Assembly: GCA_964187785.1 (NCBI GenBank)
Contig: OZ076409.1
Location: 16,246,001-16,310,000, forward strand
Source: Amphiscolops sp. MND2022
Taxonomy: Eukaryota
Direction of reading: 5' to 3'
Length of the DNA: 64,000 nucleotides
This document shows positions 1-64,000 of the stretch, in pieces. The notes below the pieces were generated by a model. That model worked only from the letters and a program-made list of their open reading frames with translations, was not told the DNA's origin and made no database searches. The position numbers and the translations under genes were made by a program. Within the stretch, counting starts at the first letter, position 1, and each line of letters starts with the position of its first letter.

Positions 1-480
1 ATGCTAAAAACCACCAAATTTACACTATTAATCTGGAGAATAAAACTGTACAAGTTTTCACTGCAGTTGAAAACTTATACAATGAAAACGAAAACTAAAC
101 TGAAAAAATTCGGACCTTTTTGACTGGAACTTTAAAGTTCTAAATCTCTACAATACCATCATCAATCAACCCAATTCCCAATTCTTTTCGAGCACTAGTT
201 GTTCGCAACCTGTATGCAAAAAACGGGTTTTGAGAACAAACTCCTTCCAGGAGCAAACATCTTTTTTCATACATTCTCCAAACTACATTATACTAACTTC
301 ATACCAAAAAAAAACATTCCCATTTTGGCGCTTTCTCAAAAATGCCATAACCAAGCATCTTCATCTACATACTTAAGTTTTTTCAACACTTCAGTTACTC
401 ATATACTCATTTTATACATATACCTTAGACTTCATTACTTTTTACTTGTAAATTCTCAGTTTTCAATAAATTCTTTAAAA
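1..480 (+). mobile_element. 3' end of ORF1-only element family A (cut by window start)
   Basis: Matches the 3' end of the A copy at 3935-5917; ORF stop TAA at 96-98; ends AATAAATTCTTTAAAA directly before an SL copy. Confidence 0.9.
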
Positions 481-590
481 GCCTAATTGTTGTGATAAAC
501 TTATTAAATAGGTAAGTATTCCAACCCTATTGATAAGTTTTATTTGAAAGCAGACTGCGAAAGTGGTCTGCTGCCCAATTTTTGAACAAG
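481..590 (+). ncRNA. Putative spliced-leader (SL) RNA (regenerated downstream of an insert; 3' end approximate)
   Basis: Exon 481-511; donor AG|GTAAGT at 512; stem I AAACTTATTAAATAGG/CCTATTGATAAGTTT; stem II AGCAGACTGC-GAAA-GTGGTCTGCT at 549-572; Sm site AATTTTTGA at 577-585. Confidence 0.8.
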
Positions 591-679
591 GAACAAGCTA
601 GTCTGCACTAACTTAAAAGTTACGCGTATTTTGACCGAGAAAATTTTCGTATCATTGTACGTAATTTTGTTGTTAAGCA

Positions 680-685
680 TATAAA
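680..685 (+). promoter_or_regulatory. TATA-like box ~27 bp upstream of 5S (recurs in the other units)
   Basis: GCATATAAAGC at -27 relative to the 5S start at 707. Confidence 0.55.
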
Positions 686-706
686 GCTATTGATTCTACA
701 ATGATC

Positions 707-825
707 GGCTACGACCATACCATGTTGAATGCACCGGTTCTCGTCCGATCACCGAAGTTAAACAACATAGGGCCTGGTTAGTACTTGGATGGGAGACCGC
801 TTGGGAACACCAGGTGTTGTAGCCT
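707..825 (+). rRNA. 5S rRNA
   Basis: GGCTACGACCATACC...GGTTAGTACTTGGATGGGAGACC...GTGTTGTAGCCT; terminal stem GGCTAC/GTAGCC; followed by a T-run. Confidence 0.97.
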
Positions 826-830
826 TTTTT
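825..830 (+). terminator. Pol III oligo-dT terminator of 5S (each unit)
   Basis: TTTTTT directly after the 5S 3' end. Confidence 0.85.
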
Positions 831-835
831 GTCAG

Positions 836-1105
836 AAATGTGGTTTAACTTCGGTGACAGTTTTGCAAAAGGGGTCAAATTGAAAAGATAGCAAAAAACG
901 AACAACGCCATTAGAAAGAGCGTCCAAAAAAACCCCCATGCTGAAATTTTCGCCGCCATCACTTGAATTTTCATTGAGTTATGTCATTTTTACTATTTTC
1001 ACAAAATGTGGTTTAACTTCGGTGACAGTTTTGCAAAAGGGGTCAAAATGAACAGATAGCAAAAAACGGACAACGGCACTGGAAAGAGGGCCCAAAATTA
1101 CCCCT
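836..1105. repeat. Two ~100-bp direct subrepeats in the spacer (period 168 bp; recur in the other units)
   Basis: AAATGTGGTTTAACTTCGGTGACAGTTTTGCAAAAGGGGTCAAA... at 836 and 1004. Confidence 0.92.
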
Positions 1106-1309
1106 AAAACGTGTTTTTCACACTCCTGAGTCGACTTTTGATAATACATGGAATTTCATTTTTAAGCTTACTAATTTATGCTTTTCAGCATACATTTTCG
1201 TAATAGAGTCAAAATTTTGCTTTCTCGCAATTTTTCTGGAATATTTTTGTTTCATCAGATGTCAATAACTTGAAACGTCGTCTTTTCATGAGAATTTCTC
1301 CTCAAAACA

Positions 1310-1384
1310 AGTTGTTGGCTGGTAATGGTAAGTCCGTACCGCAGATAGGACTCTCGCGCTCCAAAAATTGACTCTTTGCTTTTA
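1310..1384 (+). promoter_or_regulatory. Presumed upstream promoter region of the SL RNA gene (boundaries unknown)
   Basis: Conserved, relatively GC-rich block (GGTAAGTCCGTACCGCAGATAGGACTCTCGCGCTCC) at about -60 to -23 of the SL start, where snRNA-type proximal elements usually lie. Position-based inference only. Confidence 0.4.
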
Positions 1385-1401
1385 GCCTAATTGTTGTGAT
1401 A

Positions 1402-3005
1402 CTGCGTGTGTCAGCAATTATTTGCTAACTCTACTCTCACTGCTGCGGCAGAGAAGACGAAAATTACCTGAACAATGCCTTTATTGACAGCAGAATTCAT
1501 CATTCCTTACACAAAAGAAGAAATTACCAGCCCAAACATAAAGCAAGCTGTTTACAAAGAATTCCTTTGCAAGCTTTTACATGCTTTATCGCCTACTCAT
1601 ATTGACAGCGTGACATGCATTAAATCGTATGTGTCCAAACATGCGCCAGCGCATGAGCATGAAAAGAAGCTTGAATGCATCAAAATTATTGCTCCAAACT
1701 CGATAGAAAACGACTTCAAAAACCTACTTCTTAAAGGAATTCCTTACAAAAACCGGATAATTTATGCATTCCAAAACAGTGATGTTTATTCTAACTCCTA
1801 CCCAAAGCAATTCACTTTGAAATTCCGCAATTTACCACACTTTTTAGAAGATGGAGAGATCGTGGAGGCTTGTAATCTGCAAGAGTACAAAATTTCCAAA
1901 TTACGCCACCAAAGAGTAAGAATTTCTGACGACATCGAAGCCTTTACTGGAATCTGTTATGCTGAAATAGAGATTGCCAATCAATGCCAATTAGAAAACA
2001 TCAAATCATGGAACCAACAAGCCTTTTTGAACCAGTTTGTTACTAATGAAATTCCCTTCAAATGTTACATTCAAACCTTGTTACAATGTGAGAATTGTAA
2101 CGAAGGAAAACGCCAATTTATGGGCCATCATAAGAAGCAATGCAAACATCACTCAACACAAAAAAACAATCTTAGCAATGAAGATACTGAGCCAATACCT
2201 TCTGAGGAGGAGGAGGAGTCAGCTGATGAACCTGAAAACAAAGCCACGAAAGTGGATCCCGATATTGCTTTTTTACCGTTTTACCTCGATGTGGACAACG
2301 AAATTATTCAGACTGTCAACAGAATGGAATCAAAATATCCTAAACTAGCAGAATGTGATCACAAAGGAGGTGATATCAACATCATTAACGATAAAAAAGT
2401 TGTTGTTAACCAACTAAGATATGTCCAAAAACTATCGGAATCAGCACAACAAGAGATGTTTGAAGACAAAGAGTGGAGAAGCCGAACCTCCTCTTCAAAG
2501 ATCGCCAACTACGATGCCTTCAAATACATCAAAGGAAGACTGGATGCCTTCTTTTACAAACCCGAGAACATCATTTATTTAGTAAATCTCCAAGGAAAAG
2601 TTAGATATGACTTTATCCCATTTGAAAAACAAGATTGATGCTATTTTTTGTAACAAACACAAATAACTCAAAACCCACTCCTTGATATGCTACACCCTCA
2701 AATCCCAAGTCTTTTAAAGTTCAATACCATGCTATTAAAATAGCCAAAAAACAGTTTGATCCAATAACTCCATCCAGGAGCAAACATCACTTTTACCCCA
2801 CATACTCAAGACTACATTATGCTAATTTCTTCAAAAAAAACAACGTTCTTTTTTGCTTGAACTTTCAAACAAGCTTCCATTTTTCACTCAGTACTTTTTC
2901 ATACTCTTATACAGTACTTTGTACACCTTTTATACCGTTTATATCTTTTATACAATTTATACTAACATTTTTGTTAGCGTAAAGTTTACAATAAAGTCTT
3001 CAAAA
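1402..3005 (+). mobile_element. ORF1-only non-autonomous retroelement, family B
   Basis: Flanked by the 17-bp duplication GCCTAATTGTTGTGATA (1385-1401 / 3006-3022); single ORF; ends AATAAAGTCTTCAAAA. Confidence 0.88.
1475..2638 (+). CDS. ORF1-like protein, family B (387 aa; CX2CX9HX4C knuckle, acidic linker, extra C-terminal domain)
   Basis: ATG-initiated ORF; YPKQFTLKFRNLP and CENCNEGKRQFMGHHKKQC align by eye with the autonomous ORF1. Confidence 0.85.
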   Translation: MPLLTAEFIIPYTKEEITSPNIKQAVYKEFLCKLLHALSPTHIDSVTCIKSYVSKHAPAHEHEKKLECIKIIAPNSIENDFKNLLLKGIPYKNRIIYAFQNSDVYSNSYPKQFTLKFRNLPHFLEDGEIVEACNLQEYKISKLRHQRVRISDDIEAFTGICYAEIEIANQCQLENIKSWNQQAFLNQFVTNEIPFKCYIQTLLQCENCNEGKRQFMGHHKKQCKHHSTQKNNLSNEDTEPIPSEEEEESADEPENKATKVDPDIAFLPFYLDVDNEIIQTVNRMESKYPKLAECDHKGGDINIINDKKVVVNQLRYVQKLSESAQQEMFEDKEWRSRTSSSKIANYDAFKYIKGRLDAFFYKPENIIYLVNLQGKVRYDFIPFEKQD

Positions 3006-3115: not shown

Positions 3116-3231
3116 GAACAAGCTAGTCTGCACTAACTTAAAAGTTACGCGTATTTTGACCGAGAAAATTTTCGTATCATTGTACGTAATTTTGTTGTTA
3201 AGCATATAAAGCTATTGATTCTACAATGATC

Positions 3232-3934: not shown

Positions 3935-5917
3935 CGGCGTTACTCTGTCAGCCTGCAAACTTTGTTTGCACAGCGCCATCTTGCAAATTTTGCAGCAAAA
4001 GTTGCAAAAGTAATGACTAATTTGAACACGAGTGAGCTTGATCAACATCATAATGAAAATGTTGAGCAAAATTGTTACAAAAATGCAGTTATTTCCTTGT
4101 CGAAATCGAACTCAAATATGGACAAATTACCAATTATTATCAACTTTGCCTTACCACTGACATCTGAAATGTTCAAAAACAGCAAATTACTGGATTCAAT
4201 GTTTGTGGAAGCTGTTATGGCCGTCAAAAACCGACTTAACTCCAATGAAATTACCATCTTCAAAACTACAATTTTACGCAACAAAGGCAATTTGAAGTGT
4301 ATTACTGTGATCATTCCTTACAAACTTGAAAATGCAGCTTCCTCTCTTATTCACGAGGGCATTACTCTTCGCAATCGGAAAATACGGCCTTATTCTGTCA
4401 ATTATTCCAACCCGAACAACAATGTCTATCCAAAAAGATTACCAATATCTTTCCGAAACCTACCACACTTTCTGACGGATGAGGATATTTTGAGTAGCTG
4501 TGGTCTTCAAAACTTCAAATTTAGTAGCAAAAATTTTCATCAACAACGACGACTTCCTGATAGCAGCCTTTTTTATACAGGAGAGGCAAGAATTACAGTT
4601 TTAATTGACAATGAGAATGAGGAAAGTTTACTACAAAACTGGGCCAATAATGCATATGACAAAATGTTTAGTTCCAGTGGCATTTTTTTCAAATGTTGCT
4701 GTATCCCACTCCTCGAATGCTCTTTATGCGTCAATGAGAACCTTCCCAGTGCTCATCAACAATCAAGATGCCCAAAACAACTATCAGACGAACAGCAAAT
4801 ACAGAAAAACAGTGAATCTCAGAACCAGAAGTTAACAACTGACTACGTTATGGAAACTGCAGAAACAGAGCCAATGTCTAATGAACCTGAACTGTCAGAT
4901 TCAGATGATGCTGAACCAATCTCAAAGGCACCAAAGCAGACCGATGATGGTACTGAAACCGAATGCAACAACAACGTGGCAGAAACTGAACAACCATGCA
5001 TTAACAACTCAAAGAAAGATACCATTCCTATGCAAAAACCTAAACTAATGCATCGCTCAACTGAATGGAAATCCTCAACAGACCTTGCCCGAAATCAAGC
5101 AGATGACCAACAGTCAACGGCAAAGCATGGATATCATGAATACCCATTCTTTTTGGAAAAGAAACAAAACAAAATACTGACACCCGAAACTATTTTCAAC
5201 GAAATACCTCCTATAAAAGAACATGTGATCAAAACCCAACAAACTTCTGGCTACATCAATACACTAGACAAGGAAAAGAAAATTCAAAGGACCTTTTCAC
5301 TCGTACAACCACTGAAGAAAGAAAAACTTGAAGATCTTTTATCTGAATCAAACTGGAAACATTCTGACTCTAACACTATTTTAACTTCTCATTTTGAATT
5401 TTACTCATTGATCCGGAAGTTTGATCCATTCTATGATGCTACAAACCACCAAATTTACACTATTAATCTGGAGAATAAAATTGTACAAGTTTTCACTGCA
5501 GTTGAAAACTTATACAATGAAAACAAAAACTAAACTGAAAAATTTCGGACCTTTTTGACTGGAACTTTAAAGTTCTAAATCTCTACAATACCATCATCAA
5601 TCAACCCAATTCCCAATTCTTTTCGAGCACTAGTTGCTCGCAACCTGTATGCAAAAAACGGGTTTTGAAAACAAACTCCTTCCAGGAGCAAACATCTTTT
5701 TTTCATACATTCTCCAAACTACATTATACTAACTTCATACCTAAAAAAAAACATTCCCATTTTGGCGCTTTCTCAAAAATGCCATAACCAAGCATCTTCA
5801 TCTACATACTTCAGCTTTTTCAACACTTCAGTTACTCATATACTCATTTTATACCTATACCTTAGACTTCATTACTTTTTACTTGTAAATTCTCAGTTTT
5901 CAATAAATTCTTTAAAA
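3935..5917 (+). mobile_element. ORF1-only non-autonomous retroelement, family A
   Basis: 17-bp duplication at 3918-3934 / 5918-5934; ends AATAAATTCTTTAAAA. Confidence 0.9.
4013..5533 (+). CDS. ORF1-like protein, family A (506 aa from first ATG; the track's GTG start at 3929 lies in the SL duplication)
   Basis: YPKRLPISFRNLPHF, FYTGEARI, CSLCVNENLPSAHQQSRC knuckle; intact in 8 of 9 complete copies. Confidence 0.87.
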   Translation: MTNLNTSELDQHHNENVEQNCYKNAVISLSKSNSNMDKLPIIINFALPLTSEMFKNSKLLDSMFVEAVMAVKNRLNSNEITIFKTTILRNKGNLKCITVIIPYKLENAASSLIHEGITLRNRKIRPYSVNYSNPNNNVYPKRLPISFRNLPHFLTDEDILSSCGLQNFKFSSKNFHQQRRLPDSSLFYTGEARITVLIDNENEESLLQNWANNAYDKMFSSSGIFFKCCCIPLLECSLCVNENLPSAHQQSRCPKQLSDEQQIQKNSESQNQKLTTDYVMETAETEPMSNEPELSDSDDAEPISKAPKQTDDGTETECNNNVAETEQPCINNSKKDTIPMQKPKLMHRSTEWKSSTDLARNQADDQQSTAKHGYHEYPFFLEKKQNKILTPETIFNEIPPIKEHVIKTQQTSGYINTLDKEKKIQRTFSLVQPLKKEKLEDLLSESNWKHSDSNTILTSHFEFYSLIRKFDPFYDATNHQIYTINLENKIVQVFTAVENLYNENKN

Positions 5918-6837: not shown

Positions 6838-8265
6838 GCCGTGAACAGTTGACTTCTGACTTCTGACTTTCACGAAAAATTGCAAATGTCAACTGAAATA
6901 CCAAATCAAGTACGGAGCTATGCACAAATTCTTCATGAAAATTCAGCTAGTTTGCCTGTTTTTACCCCGATTATCGTTCGTTTCGTGTTACCAATTCCAA
7001 AAGAAATTTTACATAATGGCAAATTACTTGACAAACTGTTTATAGAATCCGTTATTGCTGTTCAAAAATGCTTACCAATTGCAAATGTTTCCCAAACAAC
7101 AATCTTTAAAAGTACAATCCAACGAAAAAAAGGAAACTTGAAAGCAATTACTGTTATTATCCCATCATTTTTGCGAAATGAAGCAAGAGAAATGTTAACT
7201 AAAGGTATTACAATGAACGGCAGAGTAATTCCTCCTTACTCCATTCATGACTCGTCAAAAACAGATGCTGATTACCCAAAAAACTTGAGAATTTCCTTTA
7301 GAAACATGCCTCATTGCATATCAAAAGAAGAAATAATTATATCTTGCGGATTAGAGGCTTTCAGGTTAGAAGAAATTGCTCATCAACAGAGACGGCTCCC
7401 TAATGGAAACCTGTTTTACACTGGTCTTGCCAGGGTGGAAGCTATTATTGCAAATCAAGAAGAGGAATGCAGACTTAAGGAATGGTCTAAACATGCAATC
7501 CAACAAACACTTTCTTGCAATGGAGCGACGTTTCAATGTTATTGCCCTTCCTTTACAGTTGCCAATGACCTGCAAAAAACCTCTGGTATGCATCACGAAC
7601 AATTATCAGAAGCCCCAGAACAAATGCAAGCTACAGAACCCTCAATTCAAAACGAAAACCAATCAGATCCCACAGCTAGTACCTCAAAAAAACCAGTGAA
7701 TTTCGAAGACGAAAATTTGGATTCCACTGGTGAAATAGACAATATTCAATCTGATCCGCCTGCTGAGGATTTAGAAAGTTCCTCATCTTGGGATGAAGAT
7801 TCATCTAAAAGTGGATCGTCAATTGAAAAACCTGCATCTAAAATCCAGAGGAGATCGTCACTCGAACAACTTACATCTAAAACCCAAAAGAGACATCAAC
7901 CGATCTATTATTATCATCGCGAACGAAAAACAATTCTTGATGAAAAAACGACATGGACTACTTACCCAGAGGCAAACTCTCTTCTAGATAACAAGCAGCT
8001 GATTCCTGTAGCACTTGTAACAGAAGAAGAACAAAGAATCATGTTTGAATATTTCCAATTTGGCTATAATTGAACTACTATCAGAAGATACGATGAATTT
8101 GCGATAATTAAAAGAAAATATAATGTATTCAGAATGCGTAAATATAAGAAAATTTTCTTTGTAAATCTCCGAGGTCAAGTCAAAAATGCCGTGATATTGG
8201 ATAAAATACTTTAGACCTCATTACCATTATACTTGTAAACTCTCAACAAAATAAATTCTTTAAAA
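6838..8265 (+). mobile_element. ORF1-only non-autonomous retroelement, family C (tandem with D)
   Basis: Duplication at 6821-6837 / 8266-8282; ends AATAAATTCTTTAAAA. Confidence 0.87.
6886..8073 (+). CDS. ORF1-like protein, family C; probable premature TGA (homologous frame continues to 8214)
   Basis: Clearly similar to family A (KGNLKAITVIIP, YPKNLRISFRNMPH, HQQRRLP, LFYTG); lacks the CX2C knuckle. Confidence 0.8.
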   Translation: MSTEIPNQVRSYAQILHENSASLPVFTPIIVRFVLPIPKEILHNGKLLDKLFIESVIAVQKCLPIANVSQTTIFKSTIQRKKGNLKAITVIIPSFLRNEAREMLTKGITMNGRVIPPYSIHDSSKTDADYPKNLRISFRNMPHCISKEEIIISCGLEAFRLEEIAHQQRRLPNGNLFYTGLARVEAIIANQEEECRLKEWSKHAIQQTLSCNGATFQCYCPSFTVANDLQKTSGMHHEQLSEAPEQMQATEPSIQNENQSDPTASTSKKPVNFEDENLDSTGEIDNIQSDPPAEDLESSSSWDEDSSKSGSSIEKPASKIQRRSSLEQLTSKTQKRHQPIYYYHRERKTILDEKTTWTTYPEANSLLDNKQLIPVALVTEEEQRIMFEYFQFGYN

Positions 8266-8282: not shown

Positions 8283-9713
8283 CTGCGGTAGCAGCAATTA
8301 TTTGACCAAATTCATTCTCTCTCGCATCTGCTGAGGCAGGGACGATTATCTCACTTGAAAGAATGCCTAATTTCCTTACATTGGACTTTATAATACCTTA
8401 CTCCAAAGAAGAAATTACTAATCCTTCTCTAAAGCTTGTTACTTACAAAAGCTTTCTTTGCTCGTTACTTAAATGTTTACCTAGTGACGCTGTTAAACGC
8501 GTGACCTGCATGAAATCGCACGTGTACAAACATGCGCCGCACGAAAAGAAACTTGAGAGCGTCAAAGTTATCGGTCCAATTTCATTACAAAACGAGTTTA
8601 ATTCCATTATTTCTGATGGAATTTTGTTCAAAAATCGCAAGATTTATGCTCTACAAAACCATGATGTTACGTCCAATGCTTACCCCAAGCAATTTACGAT
8701 CAAATTTTGTAATTTACCACACTTCTTTCCTGATACCGATGTTATTTCGGCTTGCAATTTGAAAGATTTCAAACTTTCAAAGTTACGACACCAATTAGAG
8801 AAACTTTCTGAGGAAATTGAAACCTACACAGGCATTTGTTATGCGGATGTGGAAATCCAGGACGAAGCCCAATTACAACAGCTCATTTCATGGAATGAAA
8901 CCAGCTTTTTGAACAAATACTATCTAGAAGAAATTCCATTTAAATGCCAAATTCAAACATTACTACAATGCGATTTCTGCAGACAAAAGAAGCTCCAGTT
9001 TTTGGGGCACCATGTACGCCAATGCAAAGCCAAAAAGACACAATTAGAACCAGAATCTGAGGAAGATAGCATCTCAACCACGAAAACAAATGAAGAAAAA
9101 GAACTAGAAGCCACAGATGCAAACAAGAACAACACAGAACATACTTTCTATATTGATTTAGAAAAATGCCAAATTCGAAACATACATGACATGGACGAAC
9201 TCCATAAAGGATTTAGCAAGCTTCTTGCTTTGCAGGAATGCAAGCCTGTGAATGTCTTGAATGACAACAATGTAGTGATAAATCAACTACGACATGTGAA
9301 GAATATTACTGAAGAAAAACAGCGGAAGCTTTTCAAACAACAAAACAGATGGGGAAGTCCTTCATCAGACGTCCCAATCAAGAACTTCTCAGAGTTTTGT
9401 GAACTCCGGGGAAAGCTAGATGTGTTCTACGACTCAACAAAAGGCGAAGAAACCCTTTACCTGATGAACCTATCCAAGAAAGTGACCCACATTTTCAAAA
9501 AGAAACAACAACCACACTAACAAAACTACATTATACTAATTTTCAAACTTTGATTTCCATGTTAAATCAAAACTCTCATATTATACAATCATCACCAAGT
9601 CTTTCATTTACTCAATACTATAAGTATGCTAAGTTATTCATACTCAACACTTTAGTATTAATGTAAAGACTATTTGATTTATAAAGGCAAATTTCCAAAT
9701 ACATTCTTTAAAA
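8283..9713 (+). mobile_element. ORF1-only non-autonomous retroelement, family D
   Basis: Duplication at 8266-8282 / 9714-9730; ends AATACATTCTTTAAAA. Confidence 0.88.
8363..9520 (+). CDS. ORF1-like protein, family D (385 aa)
   Basis: Close paralogue of B (FIIPYSKEEITNP, YPKQFT, CDFCRQKKLQFLGHHVRQC). Confidence 0.86.
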   Translation: MPNFLTLDFIIPYSKEEITNPSLKLVTYKSFLCSLLKCLPSDAVKRVTCMKSHVYKHAPHEKKLESVKVIGPISLQNEFNSIISDGILFKNRKIYALQNHDVTSNAYPKQFTIKFCNLPHFFPDTDVISACNLKDFKLSKLRHQLEKLSEEIETYTGICYADVEIQDEAQLQQLISWNETSFLNKYYLEEIPFKCQIQTLLQCDFCRQKKLQFLGHHVRQCKAKKTQLEPESEEDSISTTKTNEEKELEATDANKNNTEHTFYIDLEKCQIRNIHDMDELHKGFSKLLALQECKPVNVLNDNNVVINQLRHVKNITEEKQRKLFKQQNRWGSPSSDVPIKNFSEFCELRGKLDVFYDSTKGEETLYLMNLSKKVTHIFKKKQQPH

Positions 9714-9823
9714 GCCTAATTGTTGTGATAAACTTATTAAATTGGTAAGTATTCCAACCCTATTGATAAGTTTTATTTGAAAGCAGACTGCGAAAGTGGT
9801 ATGCTGCCCAATTTTTGAACAAG
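9714..9823 (+). ncRNA. Putative SL RNA copy, degenerate (substitutions at 9743 and 9801)
   Basis: AAATTG|GTAAGT instead of AAATAG|GTAAGT; stem II mismatch. Confidence 0.65.
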
Positions 9824-10617: not shown

Positions 10618-10857
10618 GCCTAATTGTTGTGATAAACTTATTAAATAGGTAAGTATTCCAACCTTGGAATATTTCTTGCCTGTTTGAGGTGTGAATCACA
10701 CTTACTTATCAATAGGGCCCAAAAGCCAGTAACCAAAAACCAGTAACCAATAACCAACCTGTACTTACTGTTTGAAAGGTAAGTATTCCAACCCTATTGA
10801 TAAGTTTTATTTGAAAGCAGACTGCGAAAGTGGTCTGCTGCCCAATTTTTGAACAAG
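10618..10857 (+). pseudogene. SL RNA gene disrupted by a 113-bp insertion at the splice-donor loop
   Basis: Unit is 130 bp longer; AGGTAAGTATTCCAACC duplicated at 10647-10663 and 10777-10793. Confidence 0.75.
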
Positions 10858-16552: not shown

Positions 16553-16662
16553 GCCTAATTGTTGTGATAAACTTATTAAACAGGTAAGTATTCCAACCCT
16601 ATTGATAAGTTTTATTTGAAAGCAGACTGCGAAAGTGGTCTGCTGCCCAATTTTTGAACAAG
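16553..16662 (+). ncRNA. Putative SL RNA copy (T>C at 16581)
   Basis: AAACAG|GTAAGT variant. Confidence 0.7.
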
Positions 16663-20730: not shown

Positions 20731-20795
20731 CTTTGTATTACATTTGTGATTACTTTGTATTTGTAAATCTTCAGGTTTAAATAAATTCTTTAAAA
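20731..20795 (+). mobile_element. 65-bp mini-insert (5'-truncated or minimal non-coding retroelement)
   Basis: Full 17-bp duplication at 20714-20730 / 20796-20812; ends TTGTAAA...AATAAATTCTTTAAAA. Confidence 0.8.
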
Positions 20796-23140: not shown

Positions 23141-23928
23141 TTTTTGTCAGAAATGTGGTTTAACTTCGGTGACAGTTTTGCAAAAGGGGTCAAATTGAAA
23201 AGATAGCAAAAAACGGACAACGCCATTAGAAAGAGCGTCCAAAAAAACCCCCATGCTGAAATTTTCGCCGCCATCACTTGAATTTTCATTGAGTTATGTC
23301 ATTTTTACTATTTTCACAAAATGTGGTTTAACTTCGGTGACAGTTTTGCAAAAGGGGTCAAAATGAACAGATAGCAAAAAACGGACAACGGCACTGGAAA
23401 GAGGGCCCAAAATTACCCCTAAAACGTGTTTTTCACACTCCTGAGTCGACTTTTGATAATACATGGAATTTCATTTTTAAGCTTACCAATTTATGCTTTT
23501 CAGCATACATTTTCGTAATAGAGTCAAAATTTTGCTTTCTCACAATTTTTCTGGAATATTTTTGTTTCATCAGATGTCAATAACTTGAAACGTCGTCTTT
23601 TCATGAGAATTTCTCCTCAAAACAAGTTGTTGGCTGGTAATGGTAAGTCCGTACCGCAGATAGGACTCTCGCGCTCCAACAATTGACTCTTTGCTTTTAG
23701 CCTAATTGTTGTTCACGCGTCGGTTGGTTAGTTATCTTTGACTTTTGACTTCTGATTGTGAAAAACTTTTTTGACGAGTTTTTAACACATAGTACCGCTA
23801 AAACTCTAGAAGTTTAACGAAAAAATTGTTTATTTGGGTTTATACCCCTTTGCACTTTACCCCCTCTGGGTTTATACCCCCCCTTGGGTTTATACTCCCT
23901 TTTGGATAGAGGATAGGAAAACGACTTC

Positions 23929-25260
23929 ATGATTCTTGACGACGATGTTGCTTCTGGTAATGTGGACGTAACAAAAATGCCGATGGATGGTCACGACAAT
24001 ACTGAATATATTCCACCTATTGAAAGCCTCAGCCTTGTTCAATTGTCGGAGCAATCGCAATCTGGGTCTCCGTCACTTACACCACCACCAACATCTTCTC
24101 TACAGAACATACAATCGGCAATAAACATGCAATTATACAGCGCTGTTGCAGGTGCCAACACTCCACCATCTCGCACGACAGCAATAATTAAAATGAAAAT
24201 CATTCCACCATTACAAAAACAACACTTCACAACCAAGGACAACTTCACTACTGCAACCAATCAATGTTTTTCAGCAATTTTACGTTGCTTTCCACCTACA
24301 TACAGACAACAGCTTACTATTTCAAAATCATTTACAATTGTCGGGACAAGACATTTGCATTCAATTAATGTAGTGGCGCCTGTCACAGCCCAGGACATTG
24401 TATCAAAATTGCAAACAACAGGAATATCAATGCTTGGCAAAACTGTATTTCCATCGACAGACAACTTTCTCACTAATTTACCTGGACTCTATCCACGATA
24501 CACTCAAGTGAGACTTCTACATGCACCAGCACAATGCGATGACGAGACCTTAACAGAACTATTACTTCTTCCGGCAGATACGACAATCATAGGATTCAAA
24601 CGTCAGACAGACACGATTGATGGTATGTCCTTTTTCAATGGCAAAATAGCATGCACGATAAAAATCAACAATACAACTCATGAAGAAGAACTACGACAAT
24701 GGTCGTTGGATCAACATGAAAATCCCACAATGATTTGGGAGGAGATTCCTATCTTTGCATTTATTCCCTCACTTCACAATTGCACGTTCTGTAAACAACA
24801 TAACAAACCTCACTTTGGACATGACATTGCCTGGTGCAAACATGCAAAAGCACATCCAACGACTCCACCATCACCTCCTCTACCACAACAGACATCAACT
24901 ACAACTTCGCAGATGCCTCTGCCTCCTCCTTCTTCTTCTGCTACTCCATCTGTTATCGTGCCAACTCCTCCTACTTTGGTTAACAACAACTTGGGTTTAG
25001 CTGACGTACCTGTTACAACGACTGATGATTGGCAACCTGTAACTAAGAAGACTTTCCCTAAACACAGTTTGGTTAGAACGAGGTCTGTTATCAAGGCGAA
25101 AAGACCAAAACACCCGAGCCCTGTAACTGAAGTTAACCCCAATTTGACAGAACCTACGATGACGGCACCGTTCCTTCCGACTACACCCATTTACAATTCA
25201 TTTGACAGCAAGCGGTATTCTAAATCTTCCAGGTCTAAACATGATAGTGTTCAGCCTTAA
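23929..25260 (+). CDS. ORF1p (gag-like nucleic-acid-binding protein; CTFCKQHNKPHFGHDIAWC knuckle; Pro/Thr-rich tail)
   Basis: 443-aa ATG ORF directly upstream of ORF2; open in all 4 copies. Confidence 0.9.
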   Translation: MILDDDVASGNVDVTKMPMDGHDNTEYIPPIESLSLVQLSEQSQSGSPSLTPPPTSSLQNIQSAINMQLYSAVAGANTPPSRTTAIIKMKIIPPLQKQHFTTKDNFTTATNQCFSAILRCFPPTYRQQLTISKSFTIVGTRHLHSINVVAPVTAQDIVSKLQTTGISMLGKTVFPSTDNFLTNLPGLYPRYTQVRLLHAPAQCDDETLTELLLLPADTTIIGFKRQTDTIDGMSFFNGKIACTIKINNTTHEEELRQWSLDQHENPTMIWEEIPIFAFIPSLHNCTFCKQHNKPHFGHDIAWCKHAKAHPTTPPSPPLPQQTSTTTSQMPLPPPSSSATPSVIVPTPPTLVNNNLGLADVPVTTTDDWQPVTKKTFPKHSLVRTRSVIKAKRPKHPSPVTEVNPNLTEPTMTAPFLPTTPIYNSFDSKRYSKSSRSKHDSVQP

Positions 25261-28492: not shown

Positions 28493-28639
28493 CTAAGTTC
28501 AATTATATTTATATCTTGCAACCAATGAACCATTCACTTACTTTGATTAGCTACTGAATTGTCTGAATTATGAACTTGGTCTACGCTATTTGATTGATTC
28601 ATTTGTTCCTACTGATTTACTGTAATTAATTCTTTAAAA

Positions 28640-59366: not shown

Positions 59367-60154
59367 TTTTTGTCAGAAATGTGGTTTAACTTCGGTGACA
59401 GTTTTGCAAAAGGAGTCAAATTGAAAAGATAGCAAAAAACGGACAACGCCATTAGAAAGAGCGTCCAAAAAAACCCCCATGCTGAAATTTTCGCCGCCAT
59501 CACTTGAATTTTCATTGAGTTATGTCATTTTTACTATTTTCACAAAATGTGGTTTAACTTCGGTGACAGTTTTGCAAAAGGGGTCAAAATGAACAGATAG
59601 CAAAAAACGGACAACGGCACTGGAAAGAGGGCCCAAAATTACCCCTAAAACGTGTTTTTCACACTCCTGAGTCGACTTTTGATAATACATGGAATTTCAT
59701 TTTTAAGCTTACCAATTTATGCTTTTCAGCATACATTTTCGTAATAGAGTCAAAATTTTGCTTTCTCACAATTTTTCTGGAATATTTTTGTTTCATCAGA
59801 TGTCAATAACTTGAAACGTCGTCTTTTCATGAGAATTTCTCCTCAAAACAAGTTGTTGGCTGGTAATGGTAAGTCCGTACCGCAGATAGGACTCTCGCGC
59901 TCCAAAAATTGACTCTTTGCTTTTAGCCTAATTGTTGTTCACGCGTCGGTTGGTTAGTTATCTTTGACTTTTGACTTCTGATTGTGAAAAACTTTTTTGA
60001 CGAGTTTTTAACACATAGTACCGCTAAAACTCTAGAAGTTTAACGAAAAAATTGTTTATTTGGGTTTATACCCCTTTGCACTTTACCCCCTCTGGGTTTA
60101 TACCCCCCCTTGGGTTTATACTCCCTTTTGGATAGAGGATAGGAAAACGACTTC

Positions 60155-61486
60155 ATGATTCTTGACGACGATGTTGCTTCTGGTAATGTGGACGTAACAA
60201 AAATGCCGATGGATGGTCACGACAATACTGAATATATTCCACCTATTGAAAGCCTCAGCCTTGTTCAATTGTCGGAGCAATCGCAATCTGGGTCTCCGTC
60301 ACTTACACCACCACCAACATCTTCTCTACAGAACATACAATCGGCAATAAACATGCAATTATACAGCGCTGTTGCAGGTGCCAACACTCCACCATCTCGC
60401 ACGACAGCAATAATTAAAATGAAAATCATTCCACCATTACAAAAACAACACTTCACAACCAAGGACAACTTCACTACTGCAACCAATCAATGTTTTTCAG
60501 CAATTTTACGTTGCTTTCCACCTACATACAGACAACAGCTTACTATTTCAAAATCATTTACAATTGTCGGGACAAGACATTTGCATTCAATTAATGTAGT
60601 GGCGCCTGTCACAGCCCAGGACATTGTATCAAAATTGCAAACAACAGGAATATCAATGCTTGGCAAAACTGTATTTCCATCGACAGACAACTTTCTCACT
60701 AATTTACCTGGACTCTATCCACGATACACTCAAGTGAGACTTCTACATGCACCAGCACAATGCGATGACGAGACCTTAACAGAACTATTACATCTTCCGG
60801 CAGATACGACAATCATAGGATTCAAACGTCAGACAGACACGATTGATGGTATGTCCTTTTTCAATGGCAAAATAGCATGCACGATAAAAATCAACAATAC
60901 AACTCATGAAGAAGAACTACGACAATGGTCGTTGGATCAACATGAAAATCCCACAATGATTTGGGAGGAGATTCCTATCTTTGCATTTATTCCCTCACTT
61001 CACAATTGCACGTTCTGTAAACAACATAACAAACCTCACTTTGGACATGACATTGCCTGGTGCAAACATGCAAAAGCACATCCAACGACTCCACCATCAC
61101 CTCCTCTACCACAACAGACATCAACTACAACTTCGCAGATGCCTCTGCCTCCTCCTTCTTCTTCTGCTACTCCATCTGTTATCGTGCCAACTCCTCCTAC
61201 TTTGGTTAACAACAACTTGGGTTTAGCTGACGTACCTGTTACAACGACTGATGATTGGCAACCTGTAACTAAGAAGACTTTCCCTAAACACAGTTTGGTT
61301 AGAACGAGGTCTGTTATCAAGGCGAAAAGACCAAAACACCCGAGCCCTGTAACTGAAGTTAACCCCAATTTGACAGAACCTACGATGACGGCACCGTTCC
61401 TTCCGACTACACCCATTTACAATTCATTTGACAGCAAGCGGTATTCTAAATCTTCCAGGTCTAAACATGATAGTGTTCAGCCTTAA
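60155..61486 (+). CDS. ORF1p
   Basis: Near-identical to 23929-25260. Confidence 0.9.
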   Translation: MILDDDVASGNVDVTKMPMDGHDNTEYIPPIESLSLVQLSEQSQSGSPSLTPPPTSSLQNIQSAINMQLYSAVAGANTPPSRTTAIIKMKIIPPLQKQHFTTKDNFTTATNQCFSAILRCFPPTYRQQLTISKSFTIVGTRHLHSINVVAPVTAQDIVSKLQTTGISMLGKTVFPSTDNFLTNLPGLYPRYTQVRLLHAPAQCDDETLTELLHLPADTTIIGFKRQTDTIDGMSFFNGKIACTIKINNTTHEEELRQWSLDQHENPTMIWEEIPIFAFIPSLHNCTFCKQHNKPHFGHDIAWCKHAKAHPTTPPSPPLPQQTSTTTSQMPLPPPSSSATPSVIVPTPPTLVNNNLGLADVPVTTTDDWQPVTKKTFPKHSLVRTRSVIKAKRPKHPSPVTEVNPNLTEPTMTAPFLPTTPIYNSFDSKRYSKSSRSKHDSVQP

Positions 61487-64000
61487 TTGTAGAGGACTGA
61501 AGGATCCTCTTCGCCTTGCCATGACTCTGACTGCTTGTCAGCGTCATGGTGTGAAAAATTTTGTTCTTTTCCTACAAGAAACTAAGATTTCTGAATTTTA
61601 TATCAATCATAGAAAACTACTTACACAACACCATCTCTCGTACTGCATGGTTCCTGCCTCTGATACTGCAGGTGGATTGGTGACAATTTTTCCGTCTTCT
61701 TTCCACATAACTTACCGTTTTAACAATGAATCCATGCTCCTATTGCGTTTTCAAGAATATAATATCACTTTTAGCAACTGTTATGTCAATCCGCTTGCTT
61801 TTCATCTGGAAAAGCTTATTCATGGTTTCCAACAGCTTTCTCTTCTATCTTCTAGTTCTCACATACTTGGTGGAGATTTTAACTGTTTATCAACCCGTGC
61901 TGACACATCTAATGTTAATATTCGAAGTAATGATTTCCGCTTACTTCGTTTTCGAAAACTTATGAATCTTATGCACCTGCTGGATGTCACACCATGTGCT
62001 CCAGCCTCGGCTGCACATCTGTTCACACACTATGATAAAAGGTATAATACATTTAGTCGTTTAGACTACTTTTTTACATCGAGTGTTGACTTCTCTCTCG
62101 AAACTGAAGTCATTCCTTTTTCGGATCACAAGTTAATTAAGCTTTGTGAAGCGGCATCTTTTACTCCAGCAAACAGTCATTGGAAATTAAATGACAACAT
62201 TCTGCAGTATCACCATGCAGTACGGGAGGTTTTGGTGAGTTCTATTGCATCCCGGTCTACGGATTCAGAGTGTATCCTATCGAACTATGATGTCATTAAA
62301 AATCTTGTTAGGGATAAACTCCGTATCTTTTGTATCCAGAATCATAGACGTAATCTTTTTGAAGAAAATCACCTGAAAGAACTAATACTTGGTGCAGAGA
62401 AATATCTACAAATTTTTGGCGTAGATTCCAAAACTATTTCTCGTCTTTCAGATTTAAATAAAAAATTGATGGAACTCCAGCACCAGAATGCTCGTAAATG
62501 CCTTAAACAGGTGAAAATGTTTTATGTTGATGCCAATCATGGTGATCCTCAAGTTATTAAAAAACACCTTTCAAATATGAGAAAATCCGTACATATTTCT
62601 CAAATACAAGACGACAATGGTGAGGTCTTGACTACTGATGAGCAGATTTTTGAAGCTTTTCATATGCATTACTCAGATCGTTTTTCCATTCCGCAGGTCA
62701 ATATCAATAATGATTCCCATGTCAAGCAGCTGCAAGATGACATTATTGGTACTTTTTGTAGTGTTAAGAGATCTGATATTGAAAATATTCGCACTCTAAC
62801 CAGAGACCGGGATATGATTAGTGAACAAGAAGTTATTAATGCCATTACCAAATTGAATTCTGAAAGTGCTCCTGGTCCTGATGGCCTCACTTCCAACTTT
62901 TATAAAGCTCATCAGGAAGTTCTGAGTCCTCTACTCTGCAGGCTGTTTAACCAGATGGTTACTGATGGTTGGATGCCGCTATCTTTCTCCAGAGCCATTA
63001 TAAAACTGATTCCTAAAAAACCCAACGCCAATCGTGTTGAAGATTTTCGTCCCATCAGTCTTATTAATACAGACCAAAAAATACTCTCTCATATTTTGTC
63101 GGAACGAGTTCGCATTCCTGTTGATAAGCTTATTGGTCCCCACCAATCTGCTTATCTTCCTGGGCGTCACATACACTCTTCTTTATTGAAAGTCTCCTTA
63201 AACTTGGAAACCATGCCGTCAAATAATTCTCTCATCGCTATTGATTTTAGCAAAGCCTTTGATAAACTAAGTCGAACATTTATCTTTGCGTTATTAGAAA
63301 AAATTGGCTTGCACGAAAACACAGTCAAATTGATTCGCATCATGTATATGCATAATATTGCCTATCTTGACATCAATGGTCAACTCTCTCAACCTGTTCT
63401 TATGGAAAATGGAGTTAGGCAAGGCTGCCCTTTATCCGCGCTCATTTTTATTCTAGGCATTGAACCCCTTCTTCATGCAATTCAGCACTCCTTCAACATT
63501 AGATCGGATATGCCGTTTAAAATTATCTCGTATGCGGATGATCTTACTTGTGGTATTCACACTGATAATATTCAAGATCTTTTTGATATCATTGATACAT
63601 TTTCTGGCGTTACGAATTTATCTGTTAATCAATCTAAAACTGAAATTCTTACATTGAGTAGTCTTCGTCCTCCTCTCCAATCTTGTGACGTTGTTAAAAT
63701 ACTGGGTGTTCACTTTAGTTTGGGCAACTCTGCTAGACCTTTCTCTGACTTCATGAACTATGCGCAACGAAGTGGTCAGTATTGTAACAAATACAATACT
63801 CTAATAGCTCGTGCGCGAAATATTCATACATTTGTTATGCAAAAATTAGTTCATGAAATTCGCCATCTTTATGTCCTAAGGCCTCAATTAGACAAAATTG
63901 ATAGTATTTTCATTGATGCTATTTGGCTTGGCCGCAAACACAATCTAAGTAAATTTATTCTCCAGAGACCATGGTCGGCGATGGGTATTGGTCTTCGGAA
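61467..64000 (+). CDS. ORF2p APE-RT (partial, open to window end)
   Basis: Sequence matches 25241 onward, including YADD; missing from the ORF track because there is no stop inside the window. Confidence 0.92.
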   Translation, partial: MIVFSLNCRGLKDPLRLAMTLTACQRHGVKNFVLFLQETKISEFYINHRKLLTQHHLSYCMVPASDTAGGLVTIFPSSFHITYRFNNESMLLLRFQEYNITFSNCYVNPLAFHLEKLIHGFQQLSLLSSSSHILGGDFNCLSTRADTSNVNIRSNDFRLLRFRKLMNLMHLLDVTPCAPASAAHLFTHYDKRYNTFSRLDYFFTSSVDFSLETEVIPFSDHKLIKLCEAASFTPANSHWKLNDNILQYHHAVREVLVSSIASRSTDSECILSNYDVIKNLVRDKLRIFCIQNHRRNLFEENHLKELILGAEKYLQIFGVDSKTISRLSDLNKKLMELQHQNARKCLKQVKMFYVDANHGDPQVIKKHLSNMRKSVHISQIQDDNGEVLTTDEQIFEAFHMHYSDRFSIPQVNINNDSHVKQLQDDIIGTFCSVKRSDIENIRTLTRDRDMISEQEVINAITKLNSESAPGPDGLTSNFYKAHQEVLSPLLCRLFNQMVTDGWMPLSFSRAIIKLIPKKPNANRVEDFRPISLINTDQKILSHILSERVRIPVDKLIGPHQSAYLPGRHIHSSLLKVSLNLETMPSNNSLIAIDFSKAFDKLSRTFIFALLEKIGLHENTVKLIRIMYMHNIAYLDINGQLSQPVLMENGVRQGCPLSALIFILGIEPLLHAIQHSFNIRSDMPFKIISYADDLTCGIHTDNIQDLFDIIDTFSGVTNLSVNQSKTEILTLSSLRPPLQSCDVVKILGVHFSLGNSARPFSDFMNYAQRSGQYCNKYNTLIARARNIHTFVMQKLVHEIRHLYVLRPQLDKIDSIFIDAIWLGRKHNLSKFILQRPWSAMGIGLR

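Follow-up and report, generated by a model that had tools for sequence, protein, structure and literature searches.

The SL-5S array and its inserts

The stretch of Amphiscolops sp. MND2022 DNA analysed here (the window, 64 kb) is an SL-5S tandem array. It holds 21 5S rRNA genes, with Rfam scores of 111-117 bits over the whole window, and 21 SL gene starts with native upstream sequence. Four of these SL genes are intact (10618, 19810, 29544 and 35703) and the remaining 17 are interrupted. The 17-mer GCCTAATTGTTGTGATA is found 36 times in the window, on the + strand each time, against 0.01 matches expected by chance. There are six insert types: the ORF1-only families A, B, C and D (the satellites), a 65-bp fragment (F65) and the autonomous, two-ORF element L.

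1..480, + strand: 3' part of a family A copy cut by the window start, ending ...AATAAATTCTTTAAAA before GCCTAATTG at 481
481..1384, + strand: SL-5S unit of 904 bp; SL exon and intron from 481, 5S gene at 707-825 (Rfam 117.5 bits), followed by spacer and by the promoter that serves the next SL gene
1385..1401, + strand: SL nt 1-17, upstream copy of the target-site duplication; the arrangement recurs at every A-D and F65 insert
1402..3005, + strand: family B, ORF1-only, 1604 bp; ORF 1475-2638, 387 aa; one copy in the window
2963-3005, + strand: shared 3' tail of B, its last 43 nt
3935..5917, + strand: family A, ORF1-only; ORF 4013-5533, 506 aa
Starts at 11669, 14571, 20813, 32816, 48327 (ORF broken), 51229, 54137 and 57038, + strand: other A copies
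6838..8265, + strand: family C, ORF1-only, 1428 bp; ORF 6886-8073, 395 aa; one copy
8283..9713, + strand: family D, ORF1-only, 1431 bp; ORF 8363-9520, 385 aa; three copies
17474-18904 and 30464-31894, + strand: further D copies
10664..10793, + strand: 130 bp extra in a 1034-bp unit variant; the SL gene there is otherwise uninterrupted, and the extra lies just 3' of its splice-donor region
20731..20795, + strand: F65, 65 bp, one copy; 5'-truncated copy of the L016/L017-type autonomous family, with the 17-nt duplication at its flanks
23700..23712, + strand: SL nt 1-13, adjoining L at its 5' end
23713..28639, + strand: L; ORF1 23929-25260 (443 aa), ORF2 25241-28492 (1083 aa, with APE at residues 18-234, RT at 528-763 and a zf-RVT-like domain at 969-1030)
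36620-41553 (ORF2 964 aa), 42467-47405 (ORF2 981 aa) and 59939-64000 (cut), + strand: other L copies

The unit at 481..1384 is listed to represent the 21 units in the window; 19 host units are 902-905 bp long, with a mean divergence of 0.56%. Family A measures about 1983 bp and is present in nine full copies besides the cut one, while L is 4927-4939 bp long, with four copies including the one cut by the window end. Intact ORFs are found in eight of nine A copies, in all three D copies and in the single copies of B and C. The 130-bp extra is bordered on both sides by the 15-bp direct repeat GTAAGTATTCCAACC, as seen when the 1034-bp and 904-bp units are aligned; it lies outside the +1 insertion system, yet it alters its SL gene.

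Of 1189 SL exon-plus-donor sites across the genome, 1062 have native upstream sequence, which is missing at about 127 (10.7%). The window belongs to a large SL-5S tandem array and makes up its heavily invaded edge.

A single insertion site in a real SL gene

The SL exon of the window is identical to the SL of Symsagittifera roscoffensis, given as GCCTAATTGTTGTGATAAACTTATTAAATAGA in the accessible text of PMC9911081. Further, the SL gene has an SL-RNA-like fold, in which the splice donor is paired and a second hairpin and an Sm-like AAUUUUUGA are present. Because of this match and this fold, the target of insertion is a real SL gene, as had been proposed from the sequence.

The window contains 19 insert 3' ends; every one of them immediately precedes GCCTAATTG, that is SL base +1, and the orientation is the same throughout. 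L, A, C, D and F65 share the ending ATTCTTTAAAA. The one-site insertion described in the sequence-only reading is thus borne out, together with its six insert types, the duplication of the SL 5' end and the common terminal motif TTCTTTAAAA, of which B carries the variant GTCTTCAAAA.

That reading also suggested a genome-wide mapping to see whether every copy abuts the site. Across the genome, 60 occurrences of the terminal 16-mer continue with GCCTAATTG (control 0) and 19 with a base other than G (control 11). A G comes next in 65 cases, of which 61 are SL sites. The specificity for SL sites is not absolute: loci L036 and L037 carry satellite-type copies off target.

The SL 5' duplication is 17 nt long at A-D and at F65. 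Since the 5'-truncated F65 copy has it too, SL nt 1-17 represent a true target duplication. At L the duplication is 13 nt in three copies and 10-11 nt in the fourth, the one at 42457, where only nt 1-10/11 are kept. These 5' junctions vary within one family, which indicates separate L insertion events.

Autonomous elements

L is an APE-type element, unlike the restriction-like CRE/SLACS/NeSL elements, and here the first description stands. Its APE domain is N-terminal (PF03372, scoring 30.1 bits where the cut-off is 24.5), and its best solved relative is human L1 ORF2p (E 1.2e-56; for R2, 5e-21).

Genome-wide, this 3' junction is shared by no fewer than six additional autonomous families, with 5' junctions after SL nt 14-17. 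Among eight further ORF2s, RVT_1 is found in all eight and an APE family, at E<=1e-3, in five. One family occupies three different SL-unit variants (L018/L021, L022 and L023), which indicates separate insertion events; L024/L034 and L026 likewise lie in differing variants.

The ORF2 tree places the SL-specific elements in two groups, and next to each stands a group associated with U2 or tRNA; these sister lineages of the same genome are inserted in U2 genes or sit beside tRNA genes. We infer that the SL-specific clade consists of L1-group APE-type LINEs that are Tx1-like in behaviour and may belong to Tx1. Convergence on SL genes is plausible, and the ORF2 tree is compatible with more than one direction and number of target switches.

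An ORF1-only lineage and its tails

The RT-less families with an ORF1 of their own, noted earlier at the common site and with the common terminal motif, are A-D. It was further claimed that they depend on one APE-RT helper. According to this first alternative L, the single autonomous element and only source of RT in the window, mobilises all four families in trans; among the L-type ORF2 matches listed genome-wide (46% identity), 16 of 19 lack an internal stop, and the ending common to L, A, C, D and F65 fits as well. However, the 3' UTR of L bears no resemblance to the satellites beyond the last 10-16 nt, and the satellite tails match other autonomous families. The tail of B is identical to that of the L020/L027 families at 43 of 43 nt, while A agrees with L016/L017 at 36 of 41 nt and F65 at 40 of 41 nt. 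In addition, the ORF1 of L, which has 30-49% identity to other autonomous ORF1s, is the one least similar to satellite ORF1s, at about 20%. Since the site is also used by six or more other autonomous families, we regard L as an unlikely sole helper, and for the genome as a whole the claim of one helper is wrong.

For D, the terminal ~16 nt are all that is common to any sampled autonomous family. One recombinant with the body of B and a D-like tail was seen. The candidate pairing of helpers with satellites is drawn from tail identity.

A second alternative is that the ORF1-only families are internal-deletion derivatives similar to HAL1, which arose independently and recently, one from each autonomous family. 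In mammals HAL1 has kept ORF1 and lost ORF2 in several origins, according to the accessible text of PMC5753468. B and A do carry the tails of particular autonomous families, and C has a 5' leader that agrees at 90% over 31 nt with the autonomous family in L015. On the other hand, A and B show no nucleotide similarity to the autonomous families outside the tails. The A-D ORF1s, at 20-29% identity to any autonomous ORF1, form one clade (support 100/100) apart from the 14 sampled autonomous ORF1s, in a tree that is unrooted and where the satellite branch is long, so that "old" could partly mean "fast". The clade keeps its 100/100 after addition of eight database proteins and four ORFs from three further loci.

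Further, an extra C-terminal domain is seen in the alignment of satellite ORF1s, truncated in C, and in no sampled autonomous ORF1. Its model has pLDDT 85.5 and pTM 0.78, and a fold search with the domain gave no clear match. The AF2 model of the D ORF (pLDDT 82.6) predicts two RRM-like domains, a Cys/His knuckle, a linker and the C-terminal domain. The D-like protein P0176 has only 59% identity to its best match in the Amphiscolops sp. MND2022 genome and therefore belongs to another genome, in which the satellite lineage is thus present too. Taken against these relatives and the common domain, independent recent deletions are distinctly improbable.

The ORF2 survey scored 44 of 5663 candidates and the ORF1 survey 107 of 371, so that a satellite-type ORF1 in an autonomous element may have escaped among the others.

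How the satellites move

Copy number has also grown by array duplication, beside transposition. A 36,226-bp block with nine inserts is repeated, and four consecutive A-bearing units follow each other with a period of about 2.9 kb. The A copies differ by 3-26 nt (0.15-1.3%), a similarity no greater than that among the host units, so the insert counts overstate the number of events. The repeated block, the consecutive A-bearing units, this divergence and the 5' junction at nt 17 in every full-length A-D copy would also be expected if the RT-less inserts were immobile relics, each arisen once and afterwards multiplied or moved between arrays by nothing other than segmental duplication, gene conversion and unequal crossing-over of the SL-5S array. 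We find this very hard to reconcile with three 5'-truncated B copies, which share the canonical 3' junction but differ at the 5' junction: one has the 17-nt duplication, one has SL nt 1-9 followed by 35 nt of filler, and one joins the spacer upstream of the SL promoter. Because of these differing junctions, RT-less family B bears the hallmarks of reverse transcription, and the satellites move by target-primed reverse transcription. Also against relics, some SL genes contain two inserts in tandem (C with D, F65 with A, and others), and B is found on C1, C12, C13 and two unplaced contigs. Genome-wide B has 19 full-length copies with 98-100% identity, 18 of them without a stop. On other chromosomes, the L036 and L037 copies occupy non-SL sites and have intact tails; dN/dS between the two is 0.68 on 33 differences, a weak signal.

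That the 5' SL sequence stems from trans-splicing of element RNA before reverse transcription, and not from insertion into SL genes, has a negligible chance of being right, as only SL nt 1-17 (or 1-13, 1-10) and never the full 31-nt exon lie 5' of the elements, with the native SL promoter and spacer upstream and a complete SL gene and 5S gene downstream.

Proposed mechanism

Our overall reading, to which we give a probability of roughly 80%, is that a clade of APE-type LINEs resides in SL genes and that an old ORF1-only lineage uses its ORF2p in trans. At least seven autonomous lineages co-exist genome-wide, falling in two ORF2 clades. These two-ORF elements would insert by target-primed reverse transcription. 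A bottom-strand nick exactly between SL -1 and +1 would make the 3' end of every element abut GCCTAATTG, and a top-strand cut about 17 nt downstream would give the 17-nt duplication of SL nt 1-17. An insert would therefore come to lie downstream of SL nt 1-17 and of an SL promoter that is still intact, and would probably be co-transcribed from the SL start into the downstream SL copy.

The ORF1-only lineage is separate, monophyletic and, on this reading, old, comprising A-D and relatives here and in another genome. Its ORF1p combines predicted tandem RRMs, a Cys/His knuckle and the extra C-terminal domain, for which a role is presumed, and no RT or endonuclease is encoded. Satellite RNA may be coated by its own ORF1p and its 3' tail recognised by ORF2p from the corresponding autonomous lineage, the RNA then most likely being copied into the same SL site by this trans-acting ORF2p. 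Tails pass between lineages, and array duplication raises the copy number further.

Comparison with known systems

In rDNA arrays, R1 and R2 provide an example of several site-specific LINE lineages within one tandem array, where they share transcription with the host gene; only the smaller part of the units is occupied, and the inserted units cluster. The non-autonomous rDNA elements derived from R1/R2 are not known to be coding. The co-existence of site-specific LINE lineages in one array, the clustering and the minority occupancy are the same here, and so, probably, is the co-transcription, whereas the target and clade differ and the satellites are coding.

Spliced-leader exons are a known non-LTR target, and NeSL is SL-specific according to the accessible parts of PMC4640811. 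CRE1/2, SLACS and CZAR of trypanosomatids and NeSL-1 of nematodes resemble the present elements in lying, uniformly oriented and behind the SL promoter, in the SL exon of tandemly repeated SL genes. However, they belong to early-branching clades and have a restriction-like endonuclease C-terminal to RT (PMC4640811, same parts). In the present elements the APE is N-terminal and L1 ORF2p is the closest relative; therefore SL targeting was acquired independently. The sequence-only reading knew of no such system, and a search found no description of an APE-type SL-specific LINE in the searchable literature.

Tx1-clade elements are alike in being APE-type two-ORF LINEs strictly specific for multicopy small-RNA genes: Keno with U2 snRNA genes as its target, Dewa with the tRNA-Leu spacer and Mutsu with 5S rRNA genes, as stated in the accessible text of PMC4494074 and PMC3706591. 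The SL groups are, further, sisters of elements that lie in U2 genes or beside tRNA genes. In contrast, the Tx1 targets given in the accessible text of PMC4640811, PMC4494074 and PMC3706591 do not include the SL gene. Tx1-Mar has a non-autonomous partner with the same target preference, SINEU, as far as the accessible text of its source goes; the partners here are protein-coding, and the likeness to Tx1 is one of target behaviour.

HAL1 of mammals is likewise a non-autonomous LINE derivative that encodes ORF1p only and uses ORF2p in trans, but it originated repeatedly from contemporary L1 (PMC5753468, accessible text). A-D, on the other hand, form a single deep clade with an extra domain. They have only tails of about 40 nt in common with several helper lineages, insert site-specifically and are present in two genomes or more.

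The SL-5S array and its inserts

The window (G000:C1:16246001-16310000, in an assembly of 1.07 Gb) is built of head-to-tail units of ~904 bp, each with one spliced-leader (SL) RNA gene and one 5S rRNA gene; Rfam finds 21 5S rRNA genes in it. The 17-mer GCCTAATTGTTGTGATA occurs 36 times, on the + strand only, while the chance expectation is 0.01. A full-text search with the SL exon sequence led to one work, present as preprint and as journal version, on the genome of the acoel Symsagittifera roscoffensis, a passage of which gives the trans-spliced leader of that species, rebuilt from transcripts, as GCCTAATTGTTGTGATAAACTTATTAAATAGA (PMC9911081). As the exon of the window is found there as a transcript-derived leader, the target is a transcript-supported SL gene, and its first base (+1) is the G of GCCTAATTG. 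The predicted fold of the uninterrupted gene is SL-RNA-like: the splice donor would be paired in stem 1, followed by a second hairpin and the Sm-like AAUUUUUGA.

There are 21 SL gene starts with native upstream sequence in the window, 4 of them intact and 17 interrupted, and this hot zone of insertion adjoins a long run of clean 904-bp units. The six insert types reported in an earlier, sequence-only reading are all present. Their single shared 3' end position is borne out as well: 19 of 19 insert 3' ends lie directly before SL +1.

Insert types in the window (copy numbers rest on the assembly of a highly repetitive region)
A, ORF1-only family: ~1983 bp; ORF of 506 aa; 9 full copies and 1 cut copy
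B, ORF1-only family: 1604 bp; ORF of 387 aa; 1 copy
C, ORF1-only family: 1428 bp; ORF of 395 aa; 1 copy
D, ORF1-only family: 1431 bp; ORF of 385 aa; 3 copies
F65, fragment: 65 bp; no ORF; 1 copy
L, two-ORF autonomous element: ~4.93 kb; ORF1 of 443 aa, ORF2 of up to 1083 aa; 4 copies, one cut by the window end

All inserts have one orientation. A-D and F65 are preceded by SL nt 1-17, and L by nt 1-13 (three copies) or nt 1-10/11 (one copy). The inserts end in TTCTTTAAAA, except for B, which ends in GTCTTCAAAA, and no poly(A) tail is present. The hallmarks of target-primed reverse transcription are thus found, namely an invariant 3' junction, a 17-nt duplication (also at F65) and 5' truncation. 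Trans-splicing of the element RNA, as a rival source of the SL sequence at the 5' side, was rejected. Two SL genes of the window carry tandem double inserts, C+D in one and the fragment+A in the other. The 65-bp insert is real, but it is not a sixth satellite: with 40 of 41 tail nucleotides identical, it is a 5'-truncated copy of the autonomous family L016/L017 described below.

An array block with nine inserts (in the order L, D, A, L, L, A, A, A, A) recurs 36,226 bp further on:

G000:C1:16274624-16305030, first block, within the window from about 28,600
G000:C1:16310850-16340356, second block

The block has been duplicated segmentally, so part of the insert copy number comes from array duplication and the counts are inflated. 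The divergence among A copies is comparable to that among host units.

Two SL exons located 3' of inserts (window 9714-9744 and 16553-16583) have point changes near the splice donor, and read AAATTGGTAAGT and AAACAGGTAAGT where the normal sequence is AAATAGGTAAGT; interrupted SL copies may be decaying. Further, there is a unit variant of 1034 bp (unit start at window 10618), in which 130 extra bases, at 10664-10793, sit directly past the region of the splice donor in an SL gene that has no other interruption, with the 15-bp direct repeat GTAAGTATTCCAACC at both bounds. The same 1034-bp spacing is seen at G000:C1:16377679-16378713 and 16393913-16395981. The 130 bp may have arisen as a small insertion that duplicated its target, or they may make up an alternative, second leader exon in front of a second donor.

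Enzyme class of the autonomous element

The N-terminal part of the L ORF2 (residues 18-234) matches the apurinic-type endonuclease (APE) family PF03372 with 30.1 bits, above the Pfam cut-off of 24.5. It is followed by a reverse transcriptase of the non-LTR type (PF00078, E 3.1e-29), and C-terminal to this only a weak zf-RVT match is found. The closest solved structure is human L1 ORF2p (E 1.2e-56), with R2 proteins far weaker (5e-21). The combination of APE and reverse transcriptase in ORF2, with L1 ORF2p as its closest structure, places L among the APE-type LINEs (L1 group) and outside the restriction-like endonuclease (RLE) type; the first reading had likewise called it APE-type. The elements described from SL genes are of the RLE type, according to the section of PMC4640811 that deals with them. 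Membership of L in these SL-specific elements (CRE/SLACS/CZAR/NeSL) was rejected on the same N-terminal APE domain and weak zf-RVT match, and on R2-type proteins being matched far less well than L1 ORF2p.

Further autonomous families at the SL site

We searched the genome with P0002, an ORF2 from the protein database (45% identical); 44 of 5663 candidates were scored and 20 loci were fetched. Fourteen of these are SL-gene insertions with the identical 3' junction, and their 5' junctions lie after SL nt 14-17. The idea of one APE-RT helper must therefore be given up, since at least six autonomous families besides L use the same SL 3' junction.

Further autonomous families at the SL site
L015: ORF1 395 aa; ORF2 1077 aa
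L016/L017: ORF1 722-733 aa; ORF2 1089-1092 aa
L018/L021/L022/L023: ORF1 473 aa; ORF2 1108 aa
L019/L025: ORF1 672 aa; ORF2 1162 aa
L020/L027: ORF1 719 aa; ORF2 1106 aa
L024/L026/L034: ORF1 424 aa; ORF2 1092-1095 aa

RVT_1 is found in all eight further ORF2s (six of SL type, one of U2 type and one tRNA-adjacent), and an APE family (PF03372 or PF14529) at E<=1e-3 in five of the eight, L015, L019 and L020 missing the threshold. A single family can be present in several SL-unit variants: L018/L021, L022 and L023 show three upstream sequences, and the upstream sequence of L024/L034 is likewise unlike that of L026. Members of one family in different unit variants represent separate insertions rather than array copies.

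Relatives in U2 genes and by tRNA genes

The remaining six fetched ORF2 loci lie outside SL genes: two in U2 genes, two by tRNA genes, and L032 and L033, at whose junctions no small-RNA gene was found.

G000:C4:81.10 Mb, L029, two-ORF LINE within a U2 snRNA gene, after U2 nt 1-25
G000:C5:28.06 Mb, L030, two-ORF LINE within a U2 snRNA gene, after U2 nt 1-25
G000:C5:20.02 Mb, L028, LINE ~110 bp from an opposite-strand tRNA-Lys(ctt)
G000:C1:99.40 Mb, L031, LINE ~110 bp from an opposite-strand tRNA-Ala(tgc)

The U2 elements end in ...AATAAATTATTTAAA(G), followed by (G)GCTAAGATCA, which gives a duplication of 6-7 nt. Both their tail motif and their nick context (CCTTTTG/GCTAAG, the slash marking the presumed nick) resemble those of the SL elements (GCTTTTA/GCCTAA). 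L028 has a duplication of ~10 nt, TAGTTCCCCC, and differs from the SL elements, which lack poly(A), in its 18-nt terminal poly(A).

In a tree of ORF2 (43 rows, quick search, SH-aLRT support only) all acoel elements form one clade (100), apart from 20 vertebrate and invertebrate relatives. Within it, the U2 elements are the sister group (85) of L, L015 and the proteins P0002 and P0004; the five other SL families group together (98) and are sister to the tRNA-associated group (83). The known targets of Tx1-clade elements are small-RNA genes, among them U2 (Keno) and tRNA spacers (Dewa), according to PMC4494074 and PMC3706591. Here, too, the elements are specific for multicopy genes of that kind (SL, with U2 and tRNA-adjacent sisters). 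Judged by its targets, the acoel clade behaves like Tx1; its relatives in the tree carry no clade names.

The ORF1-only lineage

Families A-D have a single ORF each and no ORF2, and their proteins show homology to LINE ORF1s (E 1e-5 to 1e-18). The model predicted for the D protein from 16 aligned sequences (pLDDT 82.6) comprises a pair of RRM-like domains and a Cys/His knuckle, together with a disordered linker and a C-terminal domain, and Foldseek matches it best to proteins with tandem RRMs, HuD among them (E 2.4e-4). The C-terminal domain of ~125 residues is found in A, B, D and their relatives and is truncated in C. All autonomous ORF1s lack it and have a basic tail in its place. Modelled alone it reaches a pLDDT of 85.5 and a pTM of 0.78. 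Foldseek gave no PDB match for it at E<=0.001, and a wide VIA-align search gave no clear structural match, with a best Z of 4.6. No Pfam family is common to more than one of 16 ORF1 proteins.

In an unrooted tree of ORF1 (18 rows, careful search), which includes 14 autonomous ORF1s of SL, U2 and tRNA type, A-D form one clade (100/100) outside all 14, with A+C at 97/94 and B+D at 98/99; the satellite branch is long. The identity between satellite ORF1s and any sampled autonomous ORF1 is 20-29%, and that of the L ORF1 to other autonomous ORF1s 30-49%. A recent origin of A-D by loss of ORF2 from a contemporary autonomous family was considered and rejected on the separate clade, the low identity and a nucleotide similarity confined to the ends, among the genome candidates scored (44 of 5663 for ORF2, 107 of 371 for ORF1); an autonomous element with a satellite-type ORF1 could therefore have been missed.

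A profile of six satellite ORF1s matched only 8 proteins among 5.8 billion. One of these database proteins, the D-like ORF1 P0176, is at most 59% identical to anything in this genome and thus comes from another one, to which the D-like ORF1s P0177 and P0178 and the ORF2 P0002 are also assigned. With the database proteins added, the satellite clade is still supported at 100/100 and divides into an A/C type and a B/D type.

Outside the SL arrays, a 3.07-kb tandem repeat (L035, G000:C5:70415500-70422500) has an open chimeric ORF of 496-497 aa. Its first ~150 residues are like the C-terminal part of the L024/L026-type ORF1 core, and the remainder is a B/D-type satellite ORF1 including the C-terminal domain. 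No Rfam match was found nearby. The genome search lists more satellite-like loci on C7, C8, C10 (24.57 Mb), C11 and C12 (55.99 Mb).

Tails, tail exchange and mobility

At the nucleotide level A-D resemble autonomous families only in their tails and in one leader. The tail of B is identical to that of L020/L027 in 43 of 43 nt, and that of A to L016/L017 in 36 of 41. The 31-nt leader of C is 90% identical to that of L015, and C and D have only the terminal 10-16 nt in common with autonomous tails. In SINE/LINE pairs the 3' tail is likewise identical or nearly so to that of the partner LINE, as it is in B, F65 and A. Sharing only a partner-like tail is the pattern of a dependent element, and for B and A at least it suggests that the helper is a family other than L. 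That L is the helper of all satellites, as had been proposed, is unlikely.

Three B copies truncated at the 5' end share the canonical 3' junction, but each has a 5' junction of its own: the first shows the 17-nt duplication, the second SL nt 1-9 with filler of 35 nt, and the third lies in spacer that precedes the SL promoter. Among the candidates scored, B has 19 full-length copies, 98-100% identical and spread over three chromosomes and two unplaced contigs; 18 of them are stop-free. The truncated B junctions, the spread of B, the off-target copies and tail exchange are evidence that the RT-less elements have themselves been retrotransposed.

At L041 (G000:C1:15429250-15429600, minus strand) a B-type 3' UTR turns D-like ~60 nt before its end. 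Its tail, ...TAAAGACTATTTGATTTATA...AATACAATCTTTAAAA, is followed by a 17-nt duplication and a 5'-truncated B copy. From its sequence, this locus looks like a tail-swap recombinant plus a tandem insertion at one site. A B body with a D-like tail is direct evidence of tail exchange.

Site specificity and load genome-wide

In the genome, the terminal 16-mer AATWMATTCTTTAAAA abuts GCCTAATTG at 60 places (control 0), and at 19 scattered ones its next base is not G (control 11). In 65 cases the 16-mer is followed by G; 61 of these are SL sites, and three of the four non-SL sites start with GCC. The genome-wide 16-mer counts thus uphold the site specificity, but real off-target copies exist:

G000:C10:12.22 Mb, L036, dispersed ORF1-only copy at a non-SL site
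G000:C6:27.33 Mb, L037, dispersed ORF1-only copy at a non-SL site

Their ORFs (472-474 aa) are 45% identical to C, and over 1650 nt the two copies are 97% identical. Both 3' flanks still have GCC at their start (GCCTCATTAT and GCCGGCTG), as do two more non-SL sites carrying the terminal 16-mer. In general, SL site specificity is high, not absolute. L036 and L037 are the one pair usable for dN/dS, the other family pairs being too diverged for dS; the ratio is 0.68, a weak estimate from only 33 differences.

Exact SL exon+donor sites number 1189 genome-wide. The native upstream 9-mer is kept in 1062, which leaves about 127 SL sites (10.7%) interrupted.

Proposed mechanism and joint reading

From the junctions, the bottom strand would be nicked between -1 and +1 and the top strand after +17. 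The elements would be transcribed from the SL promoter, which is kept upstream of every insert, into the downstream SL copy, and this read-through could guide precise priming. The ORF1-only elements would use in trans the ORF2p of the autonomous family with the matching tail, and the satellite C-terminal domain may have a role in ORF2p capture.

Tentatively, with a probability of about 0.4, a joint reading can be put forward in which the ORF1-only elements would not be decay products but ancient, self-sustaining, protein-coding LINE parasites. They would bring their own RNA-packaging protein, whose dedicated C-terminal domain possibly captures foreign ORF2p, survive by swapping 3' tails of ~40 nt between successive helpers, and in more than one acoel genome have followed these to the SL gene. 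The SL specificity of the APE-type clade, for its part, may stem from a Keno-like U2 specificity, given the likeness between the nick sites of U2 (CCTTTTG/GCTAAG) and SL (GCTTTTA/GCCTAA).

Implications and comparison with known systems

To our knowledge, SL genes are known as targets only of RLE elements, in trypanosomatids and nematodes. In the full-text literature (Repbase, Dfam and subscription journals being outside its scope) we found no element of APE or Tx1 type that has SL genes as its target, nor any account of retroelements in the SL genes of acoels. With an APE-type clade inserting at +1 of an animal SL gene, the same problem has been solved independently, and the list of Tx1-like targets is extended. 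Related endonucleases with SL, U2 and tRNA-flank specificity in one genome should be useful for the study of DNA recognition by APE. For the host, the cost is the interruption of about a tenth of its SL genes, or of four fifths if the window alone is counted; the report on the model acoel states that 30% of its genes are trans-spliced (PMC9911081).

The ORF1-only lineage bears on the open question of what ORF1p is for and how cis-preference is subverted. A parasite with its own ORF1p, only the tail of its helper and visible tail exchange makes the ORF1p question directly testable.

The nearest known systems are the target-specific LINEs of the Tx1 clade, the RLE-type SL elements and HAL1. CRE/SLACS/CZAR/NeSL are like the acoel elements in their target, the SL exon of tandem SL genes, and are kin by target and not by membership: they have a restriction-like (PD-(D/E)xK) endonuclease C-terminal to the reverse transcriptase and no APE, whereas the acoel L has an N-terminal APE. 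HAL1, the nearest known ORF1-only derivative in the account consulted (PMC5753468, in part), is a non-autonomous LINE type with ORF1p only. A-D share with it an ORF1p homologue without ORF2, but not its recent derivation from a contemporary autonomous family. What is new here is an SL target for the APE class, the large number of lineages that live side by side, and an ORF1-only lineage that is deep and diversified, swaps tails and has a domain of its own.
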